Origin: an uncultured Thermoanaerobaculia bacterium | Lineage (GTDB): Bacteria; Acidobacteriota; Thermoanaerobaculia; Multivoradales; JAGPDF01 | NCBI GenBank assembly: GCA_964476605.1 | Contig: CAYZBH010000012.1 | Location: 3,869-67,868 of the forward strand | Length of the DNA: 64,000 nucleotides | Reading direction: 5' to 3' | Shown: positions 1,105-43,903 of the stretch, one piece after another | How positions within the stretch are numbered: position 1 is the first letter of the stretch | Layout of the letters: each line of letters starts with the position of its first letter | Notes under the pieces: generated by a model | Databases searched by the model: none | Seen by the model: only the letters and a program-made list of their open reading frames with translations | What the model was told of the DNA's origin: nothing | Position numbers and translations under genes: made by a program

Positions 1105-2355
1105 GTGCGTGGGAGCGACCTCCATCTCGACTGCTTCTCCGGCCTGGCCGGCGACATGTTTCTCGGCGCCTGCCTCGATCTCGGCATGCCGCTCACGGTG
1201 CTCGCGGAGGCGGTCGCGGCGCTCGCCCTTCCCGGAATCGCCGTCGAGGCGCGGCGCGCGCGCCGGGGGGGCTTCGCGGGCACCCGTTTTCGGGTCCTTT
1301 CGGAGGGCCAGCCGATCGAAGGCCCCGATCCCGAGGAATCTTCGGAGACCCCTCGGACCCCGCAACCTCCGCCGGAAAGCGGGCACGGCCGGCATCTGAA
1401 GGAGATTCTCGCGCTCCTCGATCGGAGCGCGCTCCCGGAAGCGGTCCGGGAGCGTTCCCGCGCGCTCTTCCACCGGCTCGGCGAGGCCGAGGCGAAGGCG
1501 CATGGCCTGCCGGTCGAACGGGTCCACTTCCACGAAGTGGGGGCGATCGATTCGATCGTCGACCTCGTCGGCGCCGCCGCGGCGATGGAGTGGCTCGCCC
1601 CGCGCCGCGTGACCTGCGGCACGGTCGCGGTGGGAAGCGGCACCATCCAGGGGGCGCACGGCGAGATGCCGGTACCGCCGCCCGCGGTCGCGGAGCTCGT
1701 CCGGGGGATCCCCGTGCGCTCGGCGCCCGGCGGGGAGCTCCTGACCCCGACCGGTGCCGCGCTCCTGGCGGAGCTGGTCGACGACTTCACGGAGCTGCCG
1801 GCGCTGGTCCTCGAGGGGGTGGGATACGGGCTCGGGCGGAAAGAGGTGGCGGGGCGCGCGAACGCCGTGCGTCTCTTCGCCGGACGACCCATCGGCGACG
1901 CGGCGACGAGCGAGGTCCTGGTCGTGGAGTGCGAAGTCGACGACCTGTCCGGCGAGGGGATCGGGCACGCGACGGCGCGCTTGCTCGAGGCGGGTGCGCT
2001 CGATGTCTACGTGACGCCCGTGCTCATGAAGAAGGGGCGCCCCGGCCACCTGGTCAGTCTGCTCGCGCGGCGGGAAGGCTTCGAAGGCCTGGCGGCTCTT
2101 CTCCTGGCGGAGACCGGCTCGCTCGGCTGCCGCTTCGTGCCCGCTGGCCGCTTCGAAGCGGAGCGCGAGACCGTCCTGGTCACGACCCCCTTCGGCGAGG
2201 TGCGCGTCAAGCGCGCGCGCTTCCGGGGGCGTCCGATCGCCGAGGCACCCGAGTCCGAAGACTGCCGGCGGCTCGCGCTCGCCGCCGGCGTGACCTGGCG
2301 CGAAGTCCACCAGGCGGCGCTCGCGGCGGCGCTCGCCACGCGTGCCGCGAGGTGA
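1105..2355 (+). CDS. larC: LarC-family nickel insertion protein (DUF111; nickel-pincer cofactor biosynthesis)
   Basis: GTG start. N-terminus 'LHLDCFSGLAGDMFLGACLDLG' and internal 'HFHEVGAIDSIVDLVGAA' match the LarC/UPF0272 family. Confidence 0.8.
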   Translation: MRGSDLHLDCFSGLAGDMFLGACLDLGMPLTVLAEAVAALALPGIAVEARRARRGGFAGTRFRVLSEGQPIEGPDPEESSETPRTPQPPPESGHGRHLKEILALLDRSALPEAVRERSRALFHRLGEAEAKAHGLPVERVHFHEVGAIDSIVDLVGAAAAMEWLAPRRVTCGTVAVGSGTIQGAHGEMPVPPPAVAELVRGIPVRSAPGGELLTPTGAALLAELVDDFTELPALVLEGVGYGLGRKEVAGRANAVRLFAGRPIGDAATSEVLVVECEVDDLSGEGIGHATARLLEAGALDVYVTPVLMKKGRPGHLVSLLARREGFEGLAALLLAETGSLGCRFVPAGRFEAERETVLVTTPFGEVRVKRARFRGRPIAEAPESEDCRRLALAAGVTWREVHQAALAAALATRAAR

Positions 2356-3263
2356 CGGGATCGCTGGCGGGTCCCGGCTTCGGCGAAGGGCGTCTCGAAT
2401 ACGGAGTCGCCGGCGAGGTCAGCCTGCGCTGGGCCGCGGTCGAGCTCGCGGGCGCGGTCGAGGAGGCACGACGGCGGCACGATCTCTCGCCGGTCGCGGC
2501 CGCCGCCCTGGGTCGCGCCATGGCGGGCGCGGTGCTCCTGCACCGGCTCTCGATCAAGGCCTCCCGCCGGCTGACCCTGACCGTGGTGGGGGACGGCCCT
2601 CTGGGAAAGGTGTTGGCCGAAGCCGACCCGGAAGGGAATGTGCGCGGCCTGGTCGGCGAGCCGCGCGTCGACCTGGCACCCGGACCCGAGGGCAAGCTGC
2701 GGGTCGGGGCGGCGGTCGGGCGGGGCACGCTGCGCGTCCGGCGCGAGCTCGTCGACGGCAGCGTCTACGAGAGCCAGGTGGAGCTCCAGACCGGCGAGAT
2801 CGGCCTCGACCTCGCGCACTTCCTGGAACAGAGCGAGCAGACGCAATCGGCGGTGATGGTCGGCGTCCTCGCGGGCCCCGAGGGAATCCGCGCCGCCGGC
2901 GGCATGATCGTCGAGGTGCTCCCGGGAGCCTCCGAAGCCGCCGTGGCCCGTCTCGAGGCCAATCTCTCGGAGTTCGGCGGGGTGAGCCGGGACCTCGACC
3001 GGGGAGGGCTCGAGGGGCTGCGCGATCACGTGCTCGCCGGCCTCGCGCCGTCGCTGATCGACGAGCGCGGCATCCGCTTCCGCTGCTCGTGCAGTCGCGA
3101 GCGCCTGCGGGAGCACCTCGTGGTGCTGCCGGGGAGCGATCTCGACGCGATACGCGACGAGGTGGGACGGGTCGAAGCCGAGTGCGCCTTCTGCGGCGAG
3201 CGCTACCTGTTCGTCCCCGCCGAGCTGCTCGCTCACGCTCCCGAAGCGGATCCCACCGGCTGA
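2352..3263 (+). CDS. hslO: Hsp33 redox-regulated chaperone
   Basis: GTG start overlapping the larC stop (GTGA). C-terminal zinc centre 'CSCSRERL...CAFCGERY' (CxC...CxxC) and overall collinearity with Hsp33. Confidence 0.8.
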   Translation: MTGSLAGPGFGEGRLEYGVAGEVSLRWAAVELAGAVEEARRRHDLSPVAAAALGRAMAGAVLLHRLSIKASRRLTLTVVGDGPLGKVLAEADPEGNVRGLVGEPRVDLAPGPEGKLRVGAAVGRGTLRVRRELVDGSVYESQVELQTGEIGLDLAHFLEQSEQTQSAVMVGVLAGPEGIRAAGGMIVEVLPGASEAAVARLEANLSEFGGVSRDLDRGGLEGLRDHVLAGLAPSLIDERGIRFRCSCSRERLREHLVVLPGSDLDAIRDEVGRVEAECAFCGERYLFVPAELLAHAPEADPTG

Positions 3264-3298
3264 TAGACTGCCGCGCGCGCCGAGCGCGCGAGGTGCGG

Positions 3299-5359
3299 AT
3301 GTCCAAGTTCTACGTCACCACTCCCATCTACTACGTCAACGACCTGCCGCACATCGGCCACATCTACACCACCGTGGTCGCGGACACGCTGGCGCGCTAC
3401 CGGCGGCTCGCGGGCGACGACGTCCGCTTCCTGACCGGAACGGACGAGCACGGGCAGAACATCGAGCGCGCCGCGGCGCGGGAGGGGATTCCGCCGCAGG
3501 CTCTCGCCGACCGGGTGGTGGCCCGCTACCACGAGCTCTGGAAGGTCTTCGGCATGACGCACGACGACTTCGTGCGCACGACGGAGCCGAGGCATCGGCG
3601 GGGAGTCGAAGAGCTCATCCGGCGGATCGACCGCGCCGGGGATTTCTACGTCGCCAAGCACGAGGGGTGGTACTGCCCGTCCTGCGAGACCTTCTACACC
3701 GAGAAGGAGCTGCTCTCCGAGCGGCGCTGTCCGACCCACGAGCGCCCGACCGAGTGGCACTCCGAGGAGAACGTCTTCTTCCGGCTCTCGAAGTACGAGC
3801 GGCCGCTTCTCGGTTGGATCGACGCCAACCCCGGCTGCATTCAGCCGGAGACGCGGCGCAACGAGGTTCGCGCCTTCGTCGCTTCGGGTCTGCGCGATCT
3901 CTCGGTGAGCCGGACCGAGCTCACCTGGGGGATTCCGTTCCCCGGCTATCCCGGCCACACCGTCTATGTCTGGCTCGATGCGCTCACCAACTACATTTCC
4001 GCGCTCGGCTTCGGCAGCGGTGAGCTTCCGATTGCCGACCCGGGCGGCGTCGGCCCGGGAGCTCGGTCGGCCCCGACGGATGCCGCCGGAGGCGCCACGA
4101 TCGACGATTCATCGTCCCTCTACCGAGCCTTCTGGGCGGGTGGGGGAAGCCGGACCCGACTCCACCTCATCGGCAAGGACATCATCCGCCACCACTGCGT
4201 CTACTGGCCGGCTTTCCTGATGTCGGCGGGGCTGCCGCTCCCGACCACGGTCTGGGCGCACGGCTGGTGGCTCCGCGACGAGAAGAAGATGTCGAAGTCG
4301 GTCGGTAACGTGGTCCGGCCGGACGAGCTCGTCGCGCGCTTCGGGCCGGACGTGCTGCGCTACTTCCTGCTGCGCGAGATGGTCTTCGGCCAGGACGCGA
4401 GCTTCTCGGACGAGGCGTTCGTCGACCGCTTCAACTCCGACCTCGCCAACGACCTCGGCAACACGGCGAGCCGACTGGTGACGATGGCGCGCCAGGCCTT
4501 CGACGGCAAGACGCCGGCGGTCCCGTGCGACGACAACCCGCTGATCCCGGTGGCGCGCGAGGTGGTGGCGGAATACCGCGCGGCGATGGAGGCGCTCGCC
4601 TTCCAGTCGGCGCTGCGCTCGCTCTGGCGGTTGCTGGCCGAGGCGAACCAGTACCTGGTGGCGCGCGAGCCCTGGAAGAAGGTCAAGACCGAAGGCCCGA
4701 GCGAGGAGCTCTCGCGGGTGCTCTGGAACGGGCTCGAAGCGGTGCGCATCGTCGCCTCGGGGTTGCTCCCCTTCATGCCGCAGATCGCGCCGAAGGTGCT
4801 CGCCGGCATCGGGGCCGGCGCGCCGCCGGCCTCTCTCGGGGCGCTCGCCTGGGGAGGGTTGCCCTGTGGCGTCGCGCTCCCCCCGCTCGCCCCGCTCTTT
4901 CCTCGCATCGACAAGGAGAAGTTCATGGCCGAGATCACCCCGCCACCGGTTCCCGCGCCGGAGGCTGTTGCAGCCACGCCGCCGGCCGGCGCGCCGGCCG
5001 CCGAGCCGAAGAGCGAGGGGACGGCGAATCTGATCGACATCGCGCACTTCGGCACCGTGGAGCTCAAGGTCGGAAAGGTGCTCTCCTGCGAGAATCTCCC
5101 GAAGTCGGAGAAGCTCCTCAAGATGATGGTGGACCTGGGGGAGGAGCGCCCGCGGCAGATCCTGGCCGGCATCGCCAAGGCCTACAGGCCGGAGGAGCTC
5201 ACGGGGACGCAGGTGGTGATCGTCGCGAACCTCAAGCCCGCGAAGCTGATGGGGCAGGAATCGCAGGGGATGGTGCTCGCCGCGACCGACGTGGAAGGGC
5301 GGCCGATCCTGCTCCGCCCGCACGCGGAGGGCGTCCCGACCGGCACGCGGGTGAAGTGA
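3299..5359 (+). CDS. metG: methionyl-tRNA synthetase with C-terminal tRNA-binding (EMAP/Trbp111-like) domain
   Basis: ATG start. 'PIYYVNDLPHIGHIYTTVVADTLARY' (HIGH motif), 'KMSKS' present, zinc knuckle 'CPSCE...CPTHE', and C-terminal 'GKVLSCENLPKSEKLLKMMVDLG' tRNA-binding domain. Confidence 0.95.
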   Translation: MSKFYVTTPIYYVNDLPHIGHIYTTVVADTLARYRRLAGDDVRFLTGTDEHGQNIERAAAREGIPPQALADRVVARYHELWKVFGMTHDDFVRTTEPRHRRGVEELIRRIDRAGDFYVAKHEGWYCPSCETFYTEKELLSERRCPTHERPTEWHSEENVFFRLSKYERPLLGWIDANPGCIQPETRRNEVRAFVASGLRDLSVSRTELTWGIPFPGYPGHTVYVWLDALTNYISALGFGSGELPIADPGGVGPGARSAPTDAAGGATIDDSSSLYRAFWAGGGSRTRLHLIGKDIIRHHCVYWPAFLMSAGLPLPTTVWAHGWWLRDEKKMSKSVGNVVRPDELVARFGPDVLRYFLLREMVFGQDASFSDEAFVDRFNSDLANDLGNTASRLVTMARQAFDGKTPAVPCDDNPLIPVAREVVAEYRAAMEALAFQSALRSLWRLLAEANQYLVAREPWKKVKTEGPSEELSRVLWNGLEAVRIVASGLLPFMPQIAPKVLAGIGAGAPPASLGALAWGGLPCGVALPPLAPLFPRIDKEKFMAEITPPPVPAPEAVAATPPAGAPAAEPKSEGTANLIDIAHFGTVELKVGKVLSCENLPKSEKLLKMMVDLGEERPRQILAGIAKAYRPEELTGTQVVIVANLKPAKLMGQESQGMVLAATDVEGRPILLRPHAEGVPTGTRVK

Positions 5360-6141
5360 GCTCGCGCGCGTCGCTCGTCGACTCGCACGCGCATCTCCAG
5401 AATCTCGACCGCGAGGAGCGCCGAGCGGCGCTCGAGCGCGCCCGCGAGCGCGGCGTCGACGGCGTGCTGGTTCCCGCGACGGAGCTCGCGCAAGCGGACG
5501 ATCTGCTCGACTTCTGCGACCGTGAGGTGGGGGTTTGGTGCGCGCTGGGGGTGCATCCCCACGAGGCTTCGGGGTGGCGGAGCGGCGACGAGAAACGATT
5601 GCGCGCCCTGTTGGACCATCCGAAGGCCGTCGCGGTGGGGGAGTGCGGGCTCGACTTCTTCTACGACCACGCGCCGCGCGACGTGCAGGAGCGGGTCTTC
5701 CGGGCGCAGATCGAAGTGGCGCTCGACGCCGGTCTTCCCGTCGTCGTCCACAACCGGGACTCCAACGAGGTCATGCTCGCGGTGCTCTCGGATCCGGCTT
5801 ATCGCGGCCTCCGGATCGATCTGCACTCCTTCGCCGGCGGACTCGCGATGGCGCGGGCGGCGCTCCCGCTCGCGAGCTGGTTCGGGCTCTCGGGGATGAT
5901 CACCTTTCCCAAGGCCGAGAACGTCCGCGAAGTGCTGCCGGAGATCCCGCGCGAGCGCCTCCTGGTCGAAACCGACTCTCCCTACCTGGCGCCGGTGCCC
6001 CATCGCGGCAAGCAGAACGAGCCGGCCTACGTGGTCGAGGTCACCGAACGCCTCGCCCGGGAGCTCGGCCTCTCCTTCGATGAAACGGCGGCCCTCACCA
6101 CCGAGAACTTCTTCGGGCTCTTCTCAAAGGCGCGCGGGTAG
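5356..6141 (+). CDS. tatD: TatD-family metal-dependent DNase/hydrolase
   Basis: GTG start overlapping the metG stop (GTGA). 'LVDSHAHL' and 'GECGLDFFYDH' motifs. The metG-tatD adjacency is widely conserved. Confidence 0.9.
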   Translation: MSSRASLVDSHAHLQNLDREERRAALERARERGVDGVLVPATELAQADDLLDFCDREVGVWCALGVHPHEASGWRSGDEKRLRALLDHPKAVAVGECGLDFFYDHAPRDVQERVFRAQIEVALDAGLPVVVHNRDSNEVMLAVLSDPAYRGLRIDLHSFAGGLAMARAALPLASWFGLSGMITFPKAENVREVLPEIPRERLLVETDSPYLAPVPHRGKQNEPAYVVEVTERLARELGLSFDETAALTTENFFGLFSKARG

Positions 6142-6150
6142 ATCGGAAAC

Positions 6151-6190
6151 CTCGGTTCCTCGGTTTCTCGGTTTCTCGGTTTCTCGGTAG
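6151..6190. repeat. 5x tandem octamer CTCGGTT(T/C) immediately 3' of the tatD stop
   Basis: Direct reading: ctcggttc ctcggttt ctcggttt ctcggttt ctcggtag. Confidence 0.9.
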
Positions 6191-6580
6191 CCTAGGTTCC
6201 CCCTATCGCGTCCGGTCCGATCTCCCCGCGCCGGGACCGGCGGGCGCTGTACGCTAGCCAACGGAGGGCGCCCGCCTCCGCTTCGGCCTCGCCGGGGCGT
6301 TTCCGATTGCCAGGGATTTCGACTGCTCGGCCTCAGAGGCCCCTCTGCGGGGAGCTCCGCCCGGACGCTGCCCCCGCCCCAGTGCTCTCGAGGATCCGAA
6401 GACGATGGCAACTCTTCGGGGGAGAGGCCGGCGGGGGAAGGCGGAGGAGACGCGACGTGCCTCGCAAAGCGTTGCGAGCCGGAGCCCCCTCGGGAGATTG
6501 GAGTCTTCACCCGACGGCCGGGGATGGGGGAGCGACGGCTATCGAGAGACTGAGAAACTGGGCGGGACCTTCGCCGGCGC

Positions 6581-7351
6581 CTAGACCGGATTCGGCACGT
6601 CGATGAACTCGTGCTCGAGGCCGAAGCGTTCGGCCAAGTGCTCGCCGAGAGCGCGGATCCCGAGCCGTTCGGTCGCGTAGTGACCGCAGGCCAGGTAGTG
6701 AATGCGGCTCTCGCGTGCCACGTTCATCACCCACTCGGAGACCTCGCCGGTGATGTAAGCGTCGAGGCCGGCCGCGACGGCCTGGTGGAGCTCACTTTGC
6801 GCCCCGCCCGAGATGATGCCGACCGTCGCGATCTCGTCCGGGCCAGAGAGAAAGGCGAGCGGTTCGTGGTCGAAGAGCCTACGGCAGCGGGCGACGAGCT
6901 CGGTGGGGGCGAGCGGCTCGGGATAGCGACCGCGAAAGCCGATCGCCGTCCCCTGGTAAAAGCCGAACGGCTCAACGGAATAGAGCCCCAGGCCGCGAGC
7001 CGCGAGCACATTGTTGCCGAGCTCGGGATGACGATCGAGCGGCAGGTGATAGGCGAAGAGCGCCATGCCGCTCTCGATCAGCGAAGCGACGCGCCGGAAC
7101 TGGGCACCGGTGAGCTGGCGCGGCATTCCGTCCCAGAAGAGACCGTGATGCACGAGCACCGCGTCGGCGCTCGCGCTCGCGGCGCGCTCGAAGAGCTCGA
7201 GGCAGGCCGAAACCCCGGTCGCGATCTTGCGGACCGGGCGCCGCCCTTCGACCTGGAGCCCATTCGGGCCGAAGTCCTTGTCACGCGTGGCCTCCAGGAG
7301 CTCGTCCAGGTAAGTGGAGAGCTCGCGGGTGCTCAGTTCGCCGTGGGGCAT
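6581..7351 (-). CDS. Nif3-family dinuclear metal centre protein (YqfO/YbgI-like)
   Basis: ATG start. 256 aa with conserved His-rich metal-binding segments ('VLVHHGLFW', 'AYHLPLDRHPELGNN', 'YLACGHYATE') typical of NIF3. Confidence 0.85.
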   Translation of the reverse strand: MPHGELSTRELSTYLDELLEATRDKDFGPNGLQVEGRRPVRKIATGVSACLELFERAASASADAVLVHHGLFWDGMPRQLTGAQFRRVASLIESGMALFAYHLPLDRHPELGNNVLAARGLGLYSVEPFGFYQGTAIGFRGRYPEPLAPTELVARCRRLFDHEPLAFLSGPDEIATVGIISGGAQSELHQAVAAGLDAYITGEVSEWVMNVARESRIHYLACGHYATERLGIRALGEHLAERFGLEHEFIDVPNPV

Positions 7352-7433: not shown

Positions 7434-9671
<2,238 letters not shown>

Positions 9672-24965: not shown

Positions 24966-25613
24966 ATGACGGCCCAGCCGCCTGATCTCGCGGAGCTTCG
25001 CGAGGCGATCGTCGCCGGCGATGGTGGCCGGGCGCGGGAGCTCGCGCGCCTCCACCTCGCGGCGGAGGGGGATCCCGTCGCCGCGGTCGAGCTCGGATTC
25101 GGAGCGGGGCTGAGGCGGGTCGGCGAGCTCTGGGAGAGCGGCGACTATTTCCTGCCGGAGCTGGTCCAGGGGGCCGAAGCGATGAAGAGCGCCATGGCGG
25201 AGCTCTTGCCGGCGCTCGCCGCGCGGGCGGGAGGTGTGACCTGCCGCGGCCGGGTGGTGCTCGGAACCGTGCGCGGGGACCTGCACGACATCGGCAAGAG
25301 CCTGGTCGGCGTCCTGCTCGCGGCGCACGGCTTCGAGATCCACGACCTCGGCGTCGACGTCCCCGCGGAGGCGTTCGTCGCCAGGGCGCGCGAGGTCGGC
25401 GCGGAGATCGTCGCCGCCTCGGCGCTGCTCACGACGACGATGGTGGGACAGCGGAGCCTCGCCGAAGCGCTCCGCGCCGCGGCGCTTCCGAGCCGGCCGC
25501 GGCTCCTGGTCGGCGGCGCGCCGACCACCCCGCGCTGGGCGGAGGAGATCGGCGCCCACCATGCCGAGAACGCGCTGCGCGCCGTCGACGTCGCGGCGCG
25601 ACTGGTTTCCTGA
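24966..25613 (+). CDS. cobalamin-binding corrinoid protein (MtbC/MtgC/MetH-B12-domain type: B12-binding_2 cap + Rossmann B12 domain)
   Basis: DxHxxG motif 'GDLHDIGKS', 'SALLTTTM' and 'LVGGAP' motifs. 215 aa. Confidence 0.85.
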   Translation: MTAQPPDLAELREAIVAGDGGRARELARLHLAAEGDPVAAVELGFGAGLRRVGELWESGDYFLPELVQGAEAMKSAMAELLPALAARAGGVTCRGRVVLGTVRGDLHDIGKSLVGVLLAAHGFEIHDLGVDVPAEAFVARAREVGAEIVAASALLTTTMVGQRSLAEALRAAALPSRPRLLVGGAPTTPRWAEEIGAHHAENALRAVDVAARLVS

Positions 25614-26491
25614 TGTCCTTCTCGAATCGCCTCGCCCGTGGCCCCTGCCTGCTGTGGGACGGCGGGATGGGCACCCTGCTGATGGCGCGGGGACTGGCGG
25701 CGGGCGAAGCCCCCGAGCGCTGGAATCTCGAGCGCCCAGAGGAGGTCCGTGCCGCGCACGCCGATTACGTCGCCGCGGGCTGTGACGTGGTGCAGACCAA
25801 CACCTTCGGCGCCCACCCGCTCCGTCTGGAGCGCTTCGGATTCGCGGAGCGCTGCGAGGAGATCGCAACGCGCGCCACGGCGCTCGCACGAAGTGCGGCT
25901 GGCACGTTCGTCGTCGGGGACCTGGGACCCGTGGGGGAGCTCCTACCTCCGGTCGGAACCGGAGACCCGGTGCGCTTCCGCGCGGGCTATCTCCGGCTCG
26001 CCCGGGCGCTCGCGGAGGCCGGATGCGATGCCCTCCACGTCGAAACGCAAAGCGATCTCGCCGAGGCCCGGATCGCCCTCTCCGCGGCGCTCGAGGCCGC
26101 TCCTGGGCTCCCCGTCCTGGTCTCGCTCGCGTTCGAGCGGCGGCCACGCGGCTTCTTCACGGTGATGGGGAATCCGCTGCTCGCATCGCTCGACGAGCTC
26201 GCGCGCCGGGGCGCCTCGGCGGTGGGGGCGAACTGCTCGCTCGCGAGCGGCGACATGGCGGTGCTCGGGCGCGAGCTGCTCGCTGGCACGGGCGCGCGGA
26301 CGCTCTTCCAGCCGAACGCGGGGCGTCCCGAGCCCCGTGCCCGAGGCTTCGTTTACACGCAGGAACCACGCGAGTTCGCGGCCGACCTCGCGCCCCTCGC
26401 GGAGGCCGGCGCAGCGGCGCTCGGCGGCTGCTGCGGCACCGATCCCCGGTTTCTCCGGGCGCTCCGCGACCTGCTCGACGAGGGCCCGTGA
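25613..26491 (+). CDS. homocysteine S-methyltransferase domain protein (PF02574; MetH N-terminal Hcy-binding barrel type)
   Basis: ATG overlapping the preceding stop (TGATG). 'CDVVQTNTF', 'VGANCSLASG' and 'LGGCCGT' supply the Cys, CysCys zinc ligand pattern of MetH/BHMT homocysteine-binding domains. Confidence 0.8.
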   Translation: MSFSNRLARGPCLLWDGGMGTLLMARGLAAGEAPERWNLERPEEVRAAHADYVAAGCDVVQTNTFGAHPLRLERFGFAERCEEIATRATALARSAAGTFVVGDLGPVGELLPPVGTGDPVRFRAGYLRLARALAEAGCDALHVETQSDLAEARIALSAALEAAPGLPVLVSLAFERRPRGFFTVMGNPLLASLDELARRGASAVGANCSLASGDMAVLGRELLAGTGARTLFQPNAGRPEPRARGFVYTQEPREFAADLAPLAEAGAAALGGCCGTDPRFLRALRDLLDEGP

Positions 26492-27168
26492 AGGGGACCC
26501 TGCGCCTCGAAGTCGCAGTCCGGGAAGACGACGTACTGCACTTCCTCGGCTACCGCGGCGGACGTCGTCCGTCGGCGTCGCTCGCCGGGCGCCTCGAGGA
26601 GGCCGTGGGCGAGGCCCGCGAACTCGCCTCCCCGCGCGGCGCCTGGCGTCCGCTGGCCGTCGAGGAGGCGGGGGAGCTCGGTCTCGAGGAGATCCCGGCC
26701 GCGGGCTTGGTGATCGGACTGGTGACGATCGGCTCGGCGATCGAGGAGCTGTCGAGCGAGCGCCTGCGGGAGGGCGATGCGGCGGGTGCGCTGTTTCTCG
26801 ACGCCGCCGGGAGCGCGGCGGTGGAAGAGGCGGCCGACCGGCTCGGAGCCGCGATCGTCCGCGAGCTCGCTCCGCCGAAAAGCAGGGGCGAAGCACCGTT
26901 TCCAGCCGAGAGCCCGCACGGTCCCGTCTCCTGCCGGATCAGCCCCGGATACGGCACCTGGCTGCTCGCCGGACAGCGCGCTCTCTTCGAGCGCCTCCCG
27001 GCGCGGGCGCTCGGAATCCGATTGGAGAGCTCGCTGCTCATGGTGCCGAGGAAGACGATCTCGTTCGCGATGTGGCTGGGGGCGGACGCCAAGCCGGTCG
27101 CGGGGCTCGCGGGCTGCGCGCGGTGCGCGCTCGCGTCCTGTCGCTACCGGCGGGAACCCGGGGCCTAG
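26488..27168 (+). CDS. MetH-like AdoMet-dependent reactivation (activation) domain protein (PF02965-like), stand-alone
   Basis: GTG start overlapping the preceding stop (GTGA). 'SPGYGTW...LFERL' and 'LESSLLMVPRKTISFAMW' resemble the conserved 'PGY' and 'LTESFAMWP..SVSG' motifs of the MetH C-terminal domain. Assignment from memory of the family, not a search. Confidence 0.55.
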   Translation: MKGTLRLEVAVREDDVLHFLGYRGGRRPSASLAGRLEEAVGEARELASPRGAWRPLAVEEAGELGLEEIPAAGLVIGLVTIGSAIEELSSERLREGDAAGALFLDAAGSAAVEEAADRLGAAIVRELAPPKSRGEAPFPAESPHGPVSCRISPGYGTWLLAGQRALFERLPARALGIRLESSLLMVPRKTISFAMWLGADAKPVAGLAGCARCALASCRYRREPGA

Positions 27169-27172
27169 CGCG

Positions 27173-28621
27173 ATGGTTCGCTGCGCGCTCTTCGACGCGA
27201 CCGAGGTCGCCGCCCTCGTCGACGAGGCCCGCGCGGTGCTCGCGCGCGTCGGATTCGGGGTGGAGAACGCCGCGGGGGCCGAGCTCCTCTCCGCCGCAGG
27301 CGTGCCGCGGCGAGCGGGACGGTTCCATCCCGACGGCGCCACGCTGGAGAGGGCGCTCGCGAGCGCGCCACGCCGCTTCGTCCTCTTCAGCCGTTCCGGC
27401 GAGCCGGCGCTTCGCTTCGGGGAAGGTCTGGTTCAGTTCGACCCGGGATCGGCCGCCGTCTACCGGCTGGACGGGGAGCGGGAGGAGCGACGCCTGGCAC
27501 GCGCGGCGGACCTGGTGGATCTCGCGCGCCTCGTGGAGGATCTCCCGGCCTACGCGGCGCAGTCCACGGCACTCGTCGCGAGCGATGTCCCGGGCAGCCT
27601 CTCCGACAGCTACCGACTCTGGGTCGCGCTCGCCTTCGGCCGCAAGCCGGTGGTGACGGGGACCTTCTCGAAGGAGTCGTTCGCGGTCATGCGCGACATG
27701 CTGGTGGCGGTGCGGGGGGACGAGGGGAGGCTGCGCGCCCAGCCGCTCGCCCTCTTCGATTGCTGTCCGACCTCCCCGCTCACCTGGACGGACCTCACGG
27801 CCCAGGCCCTCGTCGACTGCGCGCGCGCCGGAATCCCCGCGCAGATCGTGCCGGTGCCCCTCACCGGCGCGACGTCGCCCGTCACCCTGCGGGAGACGGT
27901 CGTGCAGCACGTCGCCGAGAGCCTCTCCGGTCTGTTGATCCACCAGCTGGCGTCTCCCGGAGCACCCGTGGTCCTCGGCGGCGCCCCCGCCGCGTTCGAC
28001 ATGCGCCTGGGGACGGCCGTCATGTCCGCGCCGGAGAGTCTCCTCTTGCAGGTTGGATTCGCGCAGGTGGCGCGTCACCTCGGGATCCCCTGTCACGGCT
28101 ACCTCGCTCTCTCGGATGCGAAGCGCCCCGACTACCAGGCGGGCATGGAGAGCGCCGCCGGGGCCGTGATGGGAGCCCTCGCGGGCTTCGATCTCATCTC
28201 CGGCCCGGGGCTCCTCGATTTCCTCCTCACTCAATCCTTCGAGAAGCTCCTGCTGGACCACGACGCCTGCCTGCTCGCGCTCCGCCTCGTCCGGGGCATC
28301 GAAGCGCGCGGCGGCGACGCCATCGAGCTCATCGGGGCGGCGGTCGCGAACGGCCAGATGCTCGGCCACCCGCACACGCGTCGCCATTACCGCGAGGAGC
28401 TCGCGACCCTCTCCCGGCTCGTCGATCGGTCGACCTACGGAGACTGGGAGGCGGCAGGTTCCCGGGACGCCGCGTCGCGTGCCCGCGCGGAGGTCGCGCG
28501 AAAGCTCGCAGTGGAGCCCGCGGGCGAGCTCGGGGGAGGTGTCCGCGAGGATCTCGATCGCGTGCTGGCCGCGGCGGCGCGCGCGCGGGGAGTCGAGCTG
28601 CCGGCCCTCGCCGGGGTGTAG
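27173..28621 (+). CDS. MttB-superfamily methyltransferase (trimethylamine/glycine-betaine:corrinoid methyltransferase family), non-pyrrolysine member
   Basis: 482 aa uninterrupted ORF with no internal amber codon. '[12 protein letters not shown]...[15 protein letters not shown]...[14 protein letters not shown]...[13 protein letters not shown]...[16 protein letters not shown]' is collinear with MttB/MtgB TIM-barrel proteins. Confidence 0.85.
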
Positions 28622-32874: not shown

Positions 32875-33273
32875 ATGAGCGCCAAGGGCATGCGGGTGTT
32901 GATCGCCAAGCCGGGGCTCGACGGGCACGATCGAGGAGCCAAAGTCGTGGCGCGCGCGCTGCGTGATGCCGGCTACGAGGTCATTTACAGCGGGCTGCGG
33001 CAGACGCCGGAACAGATCGCGGCGGCGGCGGTCCAGGAGGACGTGGACGCGGTCGGCCTGTCGATCCTCTCCGGAGCGCACAACCGTCTCCTTCCGGAAG
33101 TGACGCGGCTGCTGCGGGAGGCGGGGGCCGACGATGTCTTGGTGTTCGCAGGCGGCATCATCCCGGATCGGGACATCGCCGGCCTCAGGAGCGCGGGCAT
33201 CGACCAGGTCTTCCTGCCGGGAACGTCGACCGGGGACATCGTCAAGTACCTCGAGACCCGCTTGGACGGCTGA
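32875..33273 (+). CDS. methylmalonyl-CoA mutase B12-binding small subunit
   Basis: 132 aa. '[23 protein letters not shown]' (DxHxxG), '[13 protein letters not shown]', 'VFAGGIIP'. Confidence 0.85.
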
Positions 33274-37628: not shown

Positions 37629-38416
37629 AGCCGAGATCCGCGGGCGAGATCCTGGTGGTGGTCGACGTCGGCAACACGAACACCGTCTTCGGGGTCTACC
37701 GAGGTGACGACCTGGTGGCGCACTTCCGGCTCTCGACCGATACCGAGCGCACCGCGGACGAGTACGGTGCGATGCTGCTGCCGCTCTTCGGCCGCGCCGG
37801 ACTCGAACCGGAATCGGCGAGCGCCGTGGTCGTCTCTTCGGTGGTGCCTCCGCTCAACGCGACGCTGAATCGCCTGGCGCGCGAGTTCTTCGGTCATCAA
37901 CCCCTGTACGTCGAGCCCGGCGTCAAGACGGGCCTGCCGATCCGCTACGACAACCCGAGCGAAGTCGGCGCCGATCGCATCGTCAACGCGGTGGCGGCGC
38001 GCGAGCTCTACGGGGCTCCGGTGATCGTGGTCGATTTCGGAACCGCGACCACGTTCGACGTGGTGAACGCCGGGGGGGAGTACGCGGGAGGCATCATCTC
38101 GCCCGGCATCCTCATCTCGGCGGAGGCGCTCTTCGCGCACGCCTCGAGGCTCTATCGCGTCGACGTGCGCCGTCCTCAGGAGCTGCTCGGTCGGAACACC
38201 GCGTCCGCGATGCAAGCGGGGATCTACTTCGGCTACATCGGGCTGGTCGACGGGATCCTGGAGCGCCTGCTCGCGGAGGTCTCCGGCGTACGCGAGATCG
38301 TCGCGACCGGCGGCCAGGCCGAGCTCATCGCGAGCGGCTCCAGATTCCTGCGACGCACCGAGCCGCTGCTCACGCTGATCGGGCTCAAGCTGATCCATGA
38401 GCGCAACCGGAGCTGA
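37622..38416 (+). CDS. coaX: type III pantothenate kinase
   Basis: 'ILVVVDVGNTNTVFGV', 'GADRIVNAVAA', 'VIVVDFGTATTFDVV' ASKHA-fold motifs. The birA-coaX pairing is common. Confidence 0.9.
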   Translation: MVKPRSAGEILVVVDVGNTNTVFGVYRGDDLVAHFRLSTDTERTADEYGAMLLPLFGRAGLEPESASAVVVSSVVPPLNATLNRLAREFFGHQPLYVEPGVKTGLPIRYDNPSEVGADRIVNAVAARELYGAPVIVVDFGTATTFDVVNAGGEYAGGIISPGILISAEALFAHASRLYRVDVRRPQELLGRNTASAMQAGIYFGYIGLVDGILERLLAEVSGVREIVATGGQAELIASGSRFLRRTEPLLTLIGLKLIHERNRS

Positions 38417-39080
38417 TCCGGAGCCGACGGCCGAGGACCAAGCCTACTTCGCGCAGGTGGAGAGCGCGTTCCTCCGCCTGCGAGGGCGCGCGACCCTGCT
38501 CTCGGCGGCCGATTGGCAGACCGCCGCAGGGTGGCGCCGTCGCGGGATTCCCATCGGCCTCGTCGTTCAGGTCATGGAGACGCTCTTCGCCCGACGCGCG
38601 GCGCGCAAGCAGCGGACGATCTCGAGCCTCCGCTACTTCTCGGCCGCCGTGGAAGGGGCCTGGGAAGAGGTCGTGGAGTTGCAGGCCGGGGGGCGCCTGG
38701 CGCCGCCCGCTCCGCTAGCGATCGAAGATCGTCTGGCGCGCCTCGCCGCCGCGCTGCCCGAAGGGCTTGCGGATCGCACGGCCTGGGAGGCGCGCATCGC
38801 GCGTGCTGCGGGGGAGCTGCCGGAGATCGAAGCGAGCCTCGCGCGCTGGGACGGGGAGATCCTGTTGGAGCTCGACCGGCGGCTCACGCAGGACGAGCGC
38901 CAGCAGATCGAGATCGCGGTGGCGGAGGCCTTGGGGCGCTTGCGGGCACGCTGGACGGACGAGGAGGTGTCGGAAGCGGAGGCGGGGATCCGGAGACGGC
39001 TGCTCCGCCGACACTTCGGCCTGCCCCTGCTCTCGCTCTTCGCTCCCGAGGCCGAAGGGAGGAAGGACTCCCCTCCCTGA
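38397..39080 (+). CDS. hypothetical protein (227 aa, Ala/Arg/Glu-rich, helical)
   Basis: ATG start. GC3 ~85% in the first 90 codons checked. No recognisable motif. Confidence 0.5.
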   Translation: MSATGADPEPTAEDQAYFAQVESAFLRLRGRATLLSAADWQTAAGWRRRGIPIGLVVQVMETLFARRAARKQRTISSLRYFSAAVEGAWEEVVELQAGGRLAPPAPLAIEDRLARLAAALPEGLADRTAWEARIARAAGELPEIEASLARWDGEILLELDRRLTQDERQQIEIAVAEALGRLRARWTDEEVSEAEAGIRRRLLRRHFGLPLLSLFAPEAEGRKDSPP

Positions 39081-42351: not shown

Positions 42352-42561
42352 ATGAACAAGCCGAGCATCAACATCCAGGATGGATTCCTGTTTCAGAGTC
42401 TCAAGGACGGACGCGCCATGGCGCTGGAGCTGGTGACCGGCAAGCGGCTGGAAGGGAAGATACGCCGCTTCGATCGCTTCGCCGTGGTGGTCGAAACGGG
42501 CGGTCGGGAGACTCTGGTCTACAAGCACGCGATCGCCACGATTGCCCACGCCGAGGGGTGA
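42352..42561 (+). CDS. hfq: RNA chaperone Hfq
   Basis: 69 aa. 'IQDGFLFQSLKDGRAMALELVTGKRLEGKIRRFDRFAVVVE...LVYKHAIATI' Sm1/Sm2 motifs. Confidence 0.95.
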   Translation: MNKPSINIQDGFLFQSLKDGRAMALELVTGKRLEGKIRRFDRFAVVVETGGRETLVYKHAIATIAHAEG

Positions 42562-42571
42562 CCTTCCGGTC

Positions 42572-43903
42572 GTGTTGACATCTGCGCGCCGCCTTGCGGA
42601 GGTCGCGTCGCTGCTCGTCGCGATCGCGTTGGTGGGGTGCGCTTCCTCGCCACGGGTCGAGCCGAGGCCGACCCCCTTGGCGCGGGATCTCGCCGACTTC
42701 CTGCTCGACCCGCTTTCCGACTGCGAGGGGGCTCTGGACGCGCTCGATCGCGACGCGCTGCTGCGCGCGTATCAGGACCTGCTGGCGGGCGGGAGCGCCG
42801 CCGCGGTCGAAGCGGTGGCGACGCGGGTCCTGGCCGCGGCACCTGGCTCCCACGCCGCCCTCGTACTCGGAGGTCAGGCGCGTCTCGTCGCGGGCAGAGC
42901 CCAGGAGGTCCTGCGAGAGCTCGCGCCTCCCCGAGGGGAGCCCGAGACTTGCCTGCCGCTCCGCGCTCTTCGGGCGCGTGCTCTGGAGAGCGCGGGCGAC
43001 CTGATCGAGGCCTTTGGCGCGTATCTGGATCTTGCCGACGCGCTGCCCGCAGCCACCCTGCGCGCTACAGCCTTGGCGCCGAGAGCCCGCGAGATCGTCC
43101 ACCGCCGTTTCGACGAGGCCCTCCGCGCGGGACGGGTCGACGACGCCGAAGCCGCGCTCTCCAGTCTGACGCGCTGGTGGCCGCGAACCGTCGAGACGCT
43201 CGAGGCCGAGCGTGAGCTGGCCGTGGCGCGCGGCGACGAGGCGCGCGAGCTGGCCGTGCTGCGGTCGCTCCTGGCCGCCGGTGGGGAGAGGCGCGATCTG
43301 GCGCTGCGCCGGGGCGAGTTGGAGCTCACGGTGGGCGACCCGCGAGTCGGCCTCGCGTTGATCGAAGGGATGGCGGCGGCGAGCCCCTCCGATGCGGCTC
43401 TGGCCGAGGCCCTGCGGCGCGCCAAGTTCCAATGGCGGCTCCTCAACGCGCCCGAGTCGGTTCGTCGCATCGCGCGCGCTCCGGCCACCACGCGCGGCGA
43501 CCTCGCGGTGCTGCTCTATTGGCTCGTACCCAAGATCCGCTCCGCCCGACCCGCTTCGGCGCGCATCGCGTCCGACATCCTGGATCATCCCGCGCAGGAC
43601 GAGATCGTCCGGGTCGTGAATCTGGGCCTCATGCCGGTCGACGAAACGCTGCATCGCTTCACGCCGGACGCCTCGTTGCGGCCGCAAGATGCGGTCTCGG
43701 CTCTGCTCGTCCTGCTGGGCGGGGATGCGGGTTGGCCCGCTTGCGCCGGGGGGGCGCGACGGGGGCGCGAAGCACTCTGCCAAGCCGCCATCGACTGTGG
43801 CTTGCTGGCGTCGAGCGACGCCTGTCGAGCCGGCATCACCCCGTCGGGCCGGGACGTGCTCGAGATGCTCCGGCAGGCGCTCGAGCGCATGGTGGGCGAA
43901 TGA
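42572..43903 (+). CDS. predicted lipoprotein with helical/TPR-like repeats, function unknown
   Basis: GTG start. Signal peptide and lipobox 'LLVAIALVGCASS'. Ala/Leu/Arg-rich repeats. C-terminal Cys cluster 'CAGG...CQAAIDCG...DAC'. Confidence 0.6.
   Translation: MLTSARRLAEVASLLVAIALVGCASSPRVEPRPTPLARDLADFLLDPLSDCEGALDALDRDALLRAYQDLLAGGSAAAVEAVATRVLAAAPGSHAALVLGGQARLVAGRAQEVLRELAPPRGEPETCLPLRALRARALESAGDLIEAFGAYLDLADALPAATLRATALAPRAREIVHRRFDEALRAGRVDDAEAALSSLTRWWPRTVETLEAERELAVARGDEARELAVLRSLLAAGGERRDLALRRGELELTVGDPRVGLALIEGMAAASPSDAALAEALRRAKFQWRLLNAPESVRRIARAPATTRGDLAVLLYWLVPKIRSARPASARIASDILDHPAQDEIVRVVNLGLMPVDETLHRFTPDASLRPQDAVSALLVLLGGDAGWPACAGGARRGREALCQAAIDCGLLASSDACRAGITPSGRDVLEMLRQALERMVGE

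Follow-up and report, generated by a model that had tools for sequence, protein, structure and literature searches.

The 64,000-nt stretch of DNA analyzed here (hereafter, the window) comes from an uncultured Thermoanaerobaculia bacterium and contains a 439-nt spacer between the convergent genes tatD (+ strand, 5356–6141) and nif3 (− strand, 6581–7351). [quoted passage not shown] The element is present at three loci and in both orientations, and has empty sites in relatives, a flanking direct repeat, inverted ends, and no conserved open reading frame (ORF). The empty junctions, the inverted copy, and the copies near cytochrome genes and inside a DnaE2-like polymerase gene together point to a dispersed mobile repeat. 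It is probable that the element is mobile DNA of a selfish kind and neither an RNA gene nor a regulatory region specific to the locus. Support is good for classifying it as a new MITE-like family, but not for its mechanism.

Empty Junctions and a Flanking Direct Repeat

The window is GC-rich (0.694), and its nearest nif3 loci all come from metagenome-assembled genomes (MAGs) of the Thermoanaerobaculia (Acidobacteriota); an exact-protein look-up of the window Nif3 matched no record. We compared 80 loci with nif3 relatives, in 50 of which tatD is still the convergent neighbor. Across these 50 loci, the gap between the two genes ranges from −26 to 3706 nt, and in approximately 20 of them it does not exceed 56 nt, the genes abutting or overlapping. 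Mid-sized spacers of other lineages (L004–L006, L083/84, L069/75, and L019/30/51/56) form several families with no sequence relation to the spacer of the window. Given the variable gap sizes and unrelated spacers, the junction is a variable insertion point, and the 439 nt of the window are a lineage-specific insert. In two loci, L009 and L028, the junction is empty: the stop codons of tatD and nif3 overlap, the sequences read ...GCCTAGACCGGGTTCGG... / ...GCCTAGACCGGGTT, and there is one copy only of ...CTAGACCGGG..., containing CTAGACCGG.

The insert in the window is flanked by an 8-bp direct repeat that the original prediction, an earlier note made from the letters of this DNA, had overlooked. 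The left repeat, TAGATCGG (6139–6146, +), includes the tatD stop codon TAG; the right one, TAGACCGG (6582–6589, +), overlaps the nif3 stop codon (CTA, 6581–6583) and the last codons of the gene. The common pattern TAGAYCGG has just two sites on either strand of the 64 kb, both of them flanking the insert, in direct orientation. As judged from these sequences, the repeats have the look expected if the ancestral CTAGACCGG had undergone an 8-bp target-site duplication, and are a candidate for one. A candidate target-site duplication and an empty site in relatives, the pair of features expected of a MITE, are both seen here. The flanks of the copy at a different locus, L089 (GAGCGGGG / GAGCGGAG), possibly contain an 8-bp duplication as well and are suggestive only.

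The same junction has received other DNA in other lineages. In L083 (3799–4147) and L084, a relative with 75% identity, a different, unrelated insert of 349–375 nt lies between nif3 and tatD; its near-perfect hairpins, with 25-nt arms (96%), are made of tandem GGGACACACAAAC units, and it is another palindromic element with arms built of short repeats. In L008, L010, L011, L015, L017, L023, L031, L036, L045, and others, the nif3–tatD gap is 1.1–3.7 kb, and the 1–4 kb of extra DNA found at the junction in many relatives presumably are inserted genes. Throughout the class, the nif3–tatD junction thus has the appearance of a hot spot that receives insertions repeatedly.

Copies in the Opposite Orientation and at Other Loci

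Homologues of the insert were found solely in the nearest clade, about nine sequences in public data. At the tatD–nif3 junction, copies occur in the window, L001, L081, L002, L086, L087, and L085. Those matched from the nif3 side are L001 (Nif3 80% identical, 370 nt aligned at 77%) and the short L081 and L002; those matched from the tatD side are L086 (TatD 92% identical) and L087 (83%). The orientation in L001, L086, and L087 is the same as in the window. In L085, a 72-kb JGI contig with tatD, a spacer of again 439 nt, and nif3, the element is inverted: once reverse-complemented, it can be aligned over its full length with the + strand of the window, and nhmmer assigns it to the strand opposite to tatD. 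The nif3 genes of L085 and L001 are 95% identical in nucleotides and 87% identical at four-fold degenerate sites; these are very close relatives, and thus the orientation of the element has changed recently. Alignments show about 15 nt adjoining nif3 to be collinear between L001 and L085. A longer collinear stretch of about 50 nt was considered and rejected, the remainder being extra end units.

A copy at a second locus, L089 (nhmmer E-value 6e-102), lies between convergent ORFs for a multihaem cytochrome c and a cytochrome b561-like protein, on a contig with no tatD, nif3, or pnp. It was recovered by a pattern scan of metagenome contigs. A first pattern, GCGGAGGAGACGCGACGNGCCTCG, gave no matches, as a single base is different in L085 and L089; the second pattern matched, beside the true copy in L089, four chance hairpins (L088, L090–L092), which were discarded.

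The third locus is a protein-coding gene. A query of proteins with the concatenated six-frame translation of the element yielded a sole match, P0241, a DnaE2-like polymerase of 1113 amino acids from a 40-kb NCBI contig, in which residues ~828–975 correspond to the element translated in frame (...GGFLGRQRSPASGPISPRRDRRAP...STARPQRPLCGELRPDA...GKAEETRRASQSVASRSATEPSPDGRG...). When P0241 is compared with solved Pol III alpha structures, the alignment of the polymerase core extends to residue ~801 and that of the OB fold begins at residue 973, leaving about 170 residues between them vs. about 35 in Thermus aquaticus. About 140 residues are extra. Judging by this alignment, the polymerase appears to tolerate an in-frame insertion of the element of about 140 residues just before the OB fold. 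The sequence within P0241 is mosaic, its first half being similar to the window copy and its second half to L085, L001, and L089.

Taken together, the copies at the tatD–nif3 junction, between the cytochrome genes, and in the DnaE2-like gene place the element at three unrelated loci, with both orientations at one of them. The identity of the element core does not depend on the locus, being 91% between L085 and L089 (different loci) and 88% between L085 and L001 (same locus).

Architecture of the Element

The whole inserted element spans about 435 nt (6147–6581, +, where + for the element denotes the strand with the better consensus fold). It has full homologues in L001, L085 (inverted), and L089 (the other locus), and is absent in most relatives. 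Each end consists of a unit of about 60–70 nt, in which octamers are outermost, followed by the motif GGTAGCC-N3-GYTCCCCC and a hairpin of the form CCGGTCS...SGACCGG. Between the ends lies a core of approximately 300 nt.

The octamer array at 6151–6190 (+), composed of four copies of CTCGGTT(C/T) and then CTCGGTAG, is the expanded outer part of the left terminal repeat. The original prediction had reported this fivefold octamer, and Tandem Repeats Finder together with a repeat search reproduced it: period 8 with 6.2 copies at 6150–6200, and a row of 16-nt period scoring 69, the maximum in the window. A 24-nt pattern of three octamers occurs at this site alone in the window (none expected, 100 shuffles). 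The expectation that octamer number would vary between relatives also proved correct, with five in the window vs. two (CTCGGTTY CTCGGTAG) in L086, L087, L001, and L089; the fivefold array of the window is hence a lineage-specific expansion by slippage.

The left end motif, CTCGGTAGCC-TAG-GTTCCCCC (6183–6203, +), was found by motif search, and a hidden Markov model (HMM) of the end unit matches 6177–6248 (+) with an E-value of 2e-14. Its inverted partner at the right end is CTCGATAGCC-GTC-GCTCCCCC (6526–6546, −), with a unit HMM match at 6552–6489 (−; E-value 5e-6). The inverted end motif common to the copies is CTCGGTAGCC-N3-GYTCCCCC. Its shorter form, GT[AC]GCC-N3-G[CT]TCC, is found at both ends, inverted, in L085 and L001, and at the left end in the window, where the right end carries a one-mismatch variant (GATAGCC). 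Two further features had been missed in the original prediction. The region is closed by an imperfect inverted repeat with arms of 44 nt (6171–6214 and 6515–6558; 73% complementary), and the right arm includes two inverted octamers (6543–6558, −; CGAGAGAC TGAGAAAC on +), which pair with two left octamers and form the closing helix of the minimum free energy (MFE) fold.

In the left end unit, the end motif is followed by a hairpin of the form CCGGTC(G/C)-GATCTCCCCGCGCC-(C/G)GACCGG. In the window, alignments place it at 6212–6240 (+) as CCGGTCC-[GATCTCCCCGCGCC G]-GGACCGG; in L085, L001, and L089, its stem is GGTCG...CGACC, a compensatory change relative to the window. The number of end units varies, being doubled on the left in L087, doubled on the right in L001, and three plus three in L089, where the hairpin segment recurs six times and the inverted arms are up to 56 nt (91%) and 42 nt (98%) long. 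Positions 674–1304 of L089 form a nested near-perfect palindrome of about 630 nt with three inverted end units per side.

Terminal inverted repeats, as in MITEs, are therefore present, with the outermost ~5–35 nt not being clean repeats. The size is also in the MITE range: the element is shorter than ~600 bp (~435 nt), with no transposase and no ORF conserved among four copies.

Conservation, Predicted Fold, and Coding Potential

The core of the window copy is 73–76% identical to the other copies, which are 88–91% identical among themselves. At four-fold degenerate sites of nif3, the identity between the window and L001 is 49%, i.e., saturated. Conservation is uneven: sites variable among L085, L001, and L089 coincide with those differing in the window (odds ratio 7.2, p = 6e-10), and conserved blocks are found at 6220–6247, 6263–6277, 6323–6341, and 6417–6485. 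The last of these, GGGGGAGAGGCCG.C.GGGGAA.GCGGAGGAGACGCGA.G.GCCTCGCAAAGCGTTGCGAGCC.GAGC (+), is the most conserved one, with 3–5 substitutions in 69 nt among four copies, and is kept in P0241 as ...GKAEETRRASQSVASRS.... It includes the hairpin CTCGCAA-AGCG-TTGCGAG (6459–6476). Between L085 and L001, the core (88%) diverges as fast as four-fold sites (87%).

The consensus fold of the + strand consists of two domains. Domain A (6210–6368; helices 3–7) is closed by a long helix, 6210–6229/6347–6366, which encloses the helix 6240–6247/6266–6276 and the conserved hairpin GGCCTCAGAGGCC; the long helix has 19 of 20 positions paired in the other copies and four mismatches in the window copy. Domain B (6369–6521; helices 8–12) contains the cleanest compensatory changes: in helices 8, 10, and 12, 98–100% of cells are paired, and four pairs are changed on both sides. 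The MFE of the + strand, another feature absent from the original prediction, is −236 kcal/mol with z = −2.45; the − strand has z = −1.3. In stability, the consensus fold exceeds those of column-shuffled alignments (z = −3.1/−3.6; none of 200 shuffles was as stable), 94.7% of cells are paired, and double-sided changes number 11 vs. 4.3 ± 1.5 when shuffled and 1–3 when slid, all these values being based on four full sequences, three of them close, with the structure derived from those same sequences. G-U and A-C cells number 29 and 2 in the consensus derived from the + strand and 14 and 5 in that derived from the − strand. The covariation term of RNAalifold for three sequences is slightly unfavorable (+3.3/+5.9), and the window copy has 12 non-paired cells in the consensus structure.

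Among the four full copies, there is no ORF with a conserved start, frame, and stop, all frames being partly open, as expected at 69% GC, and the spacer ORFs have no match in Pfam. The representative match of the 136-aa + strand frame, P0242, a cadherin-like repeat protein and the sole match among 1.8 billion, was dismissed as chance similarity. Rfam gathering thresholds gave no family in the whole window, and permissive scans of the window, L089, and L001 gave no family, be it tmRNA, RNase P, 6S, SRP, riboswitches, group I/II introns, or ribozymes, the best matches having E > 2; ARAGORN found neither tRNA nor tmRNA, and a scan for promoters and terminators found no consensus-like sites.

Thus, part of the original description of the spacer holds: tatD and nif3 converge, with the estimated ~440 bp between them being 439 nt; GC-rich stem-loops are present, e.g., at 6459–6476 and in the GGCGGGCGC/GCGCCCGCC pairing around 6240–6276; and the claims of no convincing ORF and no match to known RNAs agree with the Pfam, conservation, Rfam, and ARAGORN results. 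The claim of lower GC does not hold, as the spacer has a GC content of 0.692 and the window 0.694, with a dip to about 0.625 confined to the first ~60 nt, occupied by octamers. As for the suggested comparison of tatD–nif3 spacers in relatives, it yielded homologues in the nearest clade only, and some compensatory changes in n = 4 sequences.

Comparison With Known Repeat Systems

The element resembles bacterial MITEs such as Correia (CREE) of Neisseria and ERIC of enterobacteria in its small size and lack of coding capacity, in its inverted ends flanked by a short direct repeat, in its presence or absence at orthologous sites in either orientation, in its mostly intergenic position near gene ends, and in forming a long hairpin once transcribed. 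Correia and ERIC have RNase III/E-dependent effects in transcripts, and inversion has been reported for Correia (PMC10969869). However, the element has no sequence similarity to them and is larger (~435 nt), with a conserved core of ~300 nt; its ends are repeated units of ~60–70 nt with an octamer microsatellite instead of a simple 20–30-bp inverted repeat; its copy number is apparently low, and no partner insertion sequence is known for it.

In-frame insertions are a feature of Rickettsia palindromic elements (RPEs) (PMC10969869). One such insertion into a protein-coding gene, a single case, is seen here, in the linker of the DnaE2-like P0241, so that the element, like RPEs, is a palindromic repeat found both between genes and in frame within a housekeeping ORF, which stays undestroyed. 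RPEs are set apart by their descriptions as ~100–150 bp long, AT-rich, and specific to Rickettsia (PMC10969869 and general knowledge), whereas the element is ~435 nt long, has 69% GC and one intragenic copy, and belongs to the Acidobacteriota.

Repetitive extragenic palindromic (REP) sequences occur downstream of genes and also inside replication and repair genes, and GTAG-REPs are defined as 20–40-bp stem-loops with an unpaired GTAG tag directly at one end (PMC3733652). Like REP, BIME, and REPIN repeats, the element lies downstream of convergent genes, has direct and inverted units in variable copy number, and has, in each end unit, the tetranucleotide GTAG ahead of a stem-loop. However, the GTAG, which is a part of GGTAGCC, is ~25 nt upstream of the conserved hairpin, with no conserved stem directly after it, the unit is 60–70 nt, not 20–40 bp with GTAG adjoining the stem, and a large unique core separates the units. 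Because of this distance between GTAG and hairpin, the element is not a strict GTAG-REP.

REPINs are GTAG-tagged palindromes mobilized by RAYT transposases. GTAG-REPs and BIMEs number from tens to thousands in a genome and are accompanied by a RAYT gene. Finally, pneumococcal BOX elements are similarly modular, intergenic, and strongly structured, with a variable number of sub-units, but they have an unrelated sequence and another organization of modules and are specific to Firmicutes.

Discussion

Several observations weigh against a MITE-like element. The conserved blocks and compensatory changes exceed what a simple MITE needs and may reflect an RNA function. The direct repeat matches at seven of eight positions in the window and is less clear in L085, L087, and L089, and clean inverted repeats are lacking at the extreme termini of the element. 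Public data contain very few members of the family (~9 sequences), and wider searches gave no more than P0241 (six-frame protein query), a chance match (representatives), and no match in viral contig and plasmid collections. There is one copy in the 64-kb window, with no second one found by blastn-short or the unit HMM, and none in ~600 kb of other relatives' loci. Neither L089 nor P0241 can be placed in the genomes of L085 or the window. Moreover, a scan of the 36 window ORFs found no transposase, recombinase, or autonomous partner, and the annotated neighborhoods of L085 and L083 contain no transposase or recombinase.

Among the readings ranked below the MITE-like one, namely a multi-copy structured non-coding RNA (ncRNA) gene, an invertible switch, neutral DNA, and a small protein, the first draws on the same features of conservation. 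In the original prediction, the spacer was a candidate for ncRNA or regulatory DNA, and a gene for a structured ncRNA, or a mobile module of RNA, present in few copies per genome, with a + strand RNA of ~370 nt closed by the long terminal helix as its functional product and the inverted ends as its P1 helix instead of transposon ends, would explain the strong rate heterogeneity, the core identity of 73–76% despite 49% at saturated four-fold sites, the consensus fold that outdoes column shuffles, the excess of double-sided changes at 94.7% pairing, the G-U excess in the structure derived from the + strand, and the more negative z-score of that strand. We nevertheless regard it as unlikely. The spacer has no Rfam family and no promoter- or terminator-like site; the four sequences, three of them close, served to derive the structure itself, the RNAalifold term is unfavorable, and in the window copy 12 cells are unpaired and the long helix of domain A is degraded. 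The L085 and L001 cores diverge at the four-fold rate, mosaic conservation could have arisen by recombination among diverged copies, as the two halves of P0241 suggest, and the in-frame dnaE2 insertion and the 8-bp duplication are hallmarks of transposition. What stands of the original proposal is that the region is non-coding, highly structured, and better conserved than neutral DNA; a locus-specific role does not, as the junction is empty in many relatives, copies are inverted or lie elsewhere, and promoter, terminator, and Rfam matches are absent. The conserved blocks, the helices with compensatory changes (8, 10, and 12), and the asymmetry of G-U pairs between the strands also speak for a variant in which the ~300-nt core is under selection as a mobile structured-RNA (or single-stranded-DNA) module, functional through its fold. 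We find this variant rather improbable; such a module might serve as the guide or scaffold that is required when a recombinase encoded elsewhere mobilizes it in an RNA- or hairpin-directed way, or it could be a host-recruited RNA of the 3′ untranslated region (UTR) that travels between convergent gene ends.

An inverton, whose segment a site-specific recombinase would flip, so that tatD and nif3 would be transcribed differently in antisense or by read-through, shares with the element the flanking inverted repeats and both orientations at one locus; L085 is opposite in orientation to its very close relatives L001 and L087, ~15 nt beside nif3 remain collinear, and Correia elements are reported to invert (PMC10969869). 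However, the two orientations are seen between lineages alone, never within one sample, the repeats are imperfect (73% in the window), the spacer has no internal promoter-like site, and the 36 window ORFs and the annotated L085 and L083 neighborhoods contain no recombinase. Copies at two other, unrelated loci require dispersal besides inversion. Contig breaks inside the spacer were considered as a sign of inversion within populations and rejected, being explained by short, low-coverage contigs (1–3 kb) that end off the repeat borders. Taken together, this makes an inverton very unlikely. We assign the lowest probability, close to negligible, to a neutral decaying spacer or a gene for a small Arg/Gly-rich protein (6405–6584, +; 59 aa). 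Neutral DNA would hardly keep 73–76% identity while four-fold sites are saturated, nor occur as copies at other loci. For the protein, all four copies have one + frame that stays open over the conserved block and has ATG or TTG in a shared alignment column, and of the three substitutions in 6417–6485 that distinguish the window from L001, two are synonymous in this frame. It was rejected since the start context (no conserved Shine–Dalgarno sequence), stop codon, and C-terminus are not conserved, indels shift the frame, conservation extends ~230 nt upstream of the ORF, the composition is of low complexity, and there is neither a Pfam match nor a homologue among 1.8 billion representatives.

The MITE-like reading suggests the following history. 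The element would have inserted at an ancestral tatD/nif3 junction with overlapping stop codons (...CTAGACCGG...), duplicating 8 bp (TAGAYCGG), so that both genes would have kept intact ends. It carries no gene, but imperfect terminal inverted repeats formed from the end units around the ~300-nt core. End units and octamers may expand and contract by slippage or duplication, which would explain the fivefold octamer of the window, and the whole element could invert between its inverted ends, as it appears to have done in L085. As no transposase or recombinase is found among the 36 window ORFs scanned or near the L085 and L083 copies, we infer that mobilization occurs in trans, by a putative transposase. 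In read-through transcripts of tatD or pnp-nif3, the element would form a multi-helix structure of very high stability, which could be a barrier or processing site for the convergent mRNAs, as known for ERIC, REP, and Correia. The effect at tatD/nif3 is probably passive, that of a structured 3′-UTR barrier.

Other Features of the Window

The genes of this region are arranged in the order radC, larC, metG, tatD, nif3, pnp, truB, DHH phosphoesterase, rbfA, infB, and nusA. Near metG, spurious long ORFs are seen, namely, a 1005-aa ‘metG’ ORF that starts at 2342 (2342–3400 being upstream of metG) and antisense ORFs of 404 and 273 aa at 4109–6003 (−). Such ORFs are typical at 69% GC, and hence ORF length alone means little in the window. 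The 3′ end of the PNPase ORF (7434–7600, −) encodes an Arg/Gly-rich tail, ...RGDRPDRGGRGDRGDRGGRSGDRRFGRGGRGR, in part by a 9-nt tandem repeat, CCGCGATCC, in 3.9 copies (7483–7517); the tail is an RGG-like extension whose length may vary. At 24966–28621 and 32875–33273, the window encodes a cluster of corrinoid (B12-binding) proteins, an MttB-family methyltransferase, and a protein with a homocysteine S-methyltransferase domain, which suggests demethylation of methylated amines or glycine betaine. Two ORFs, 38397–39080 (227 aa) and 42542–43903 (453 aa), have coding-like GC content at third codon positions and no Pfam match at E ≤ 1e-5.

Implications

The odd 440-bp gap in the housekeeping cluster metG-tatD/nif3-pnp-rpsO-truB is explained without a new RNA gene. 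We found no report of the element family in the literature searched and no match in Rfam, plasmid, or viral collections, and the family appears to be an undescribed one of the poorly studied, uncultured Thermoanaerobaculia. For a MITE, it is unusual in its large conserved core, its ends made of tandem units and a microsatellite, its inversion in situ, and its copy in frame within an error-prone polymerase. Elements of this kind break short-read assemblies and give spurious ORF calls in high-GC MAGs. If the core were indeed a functional RNA, the family would represent a structured RNA that spreads as mobile DNA.

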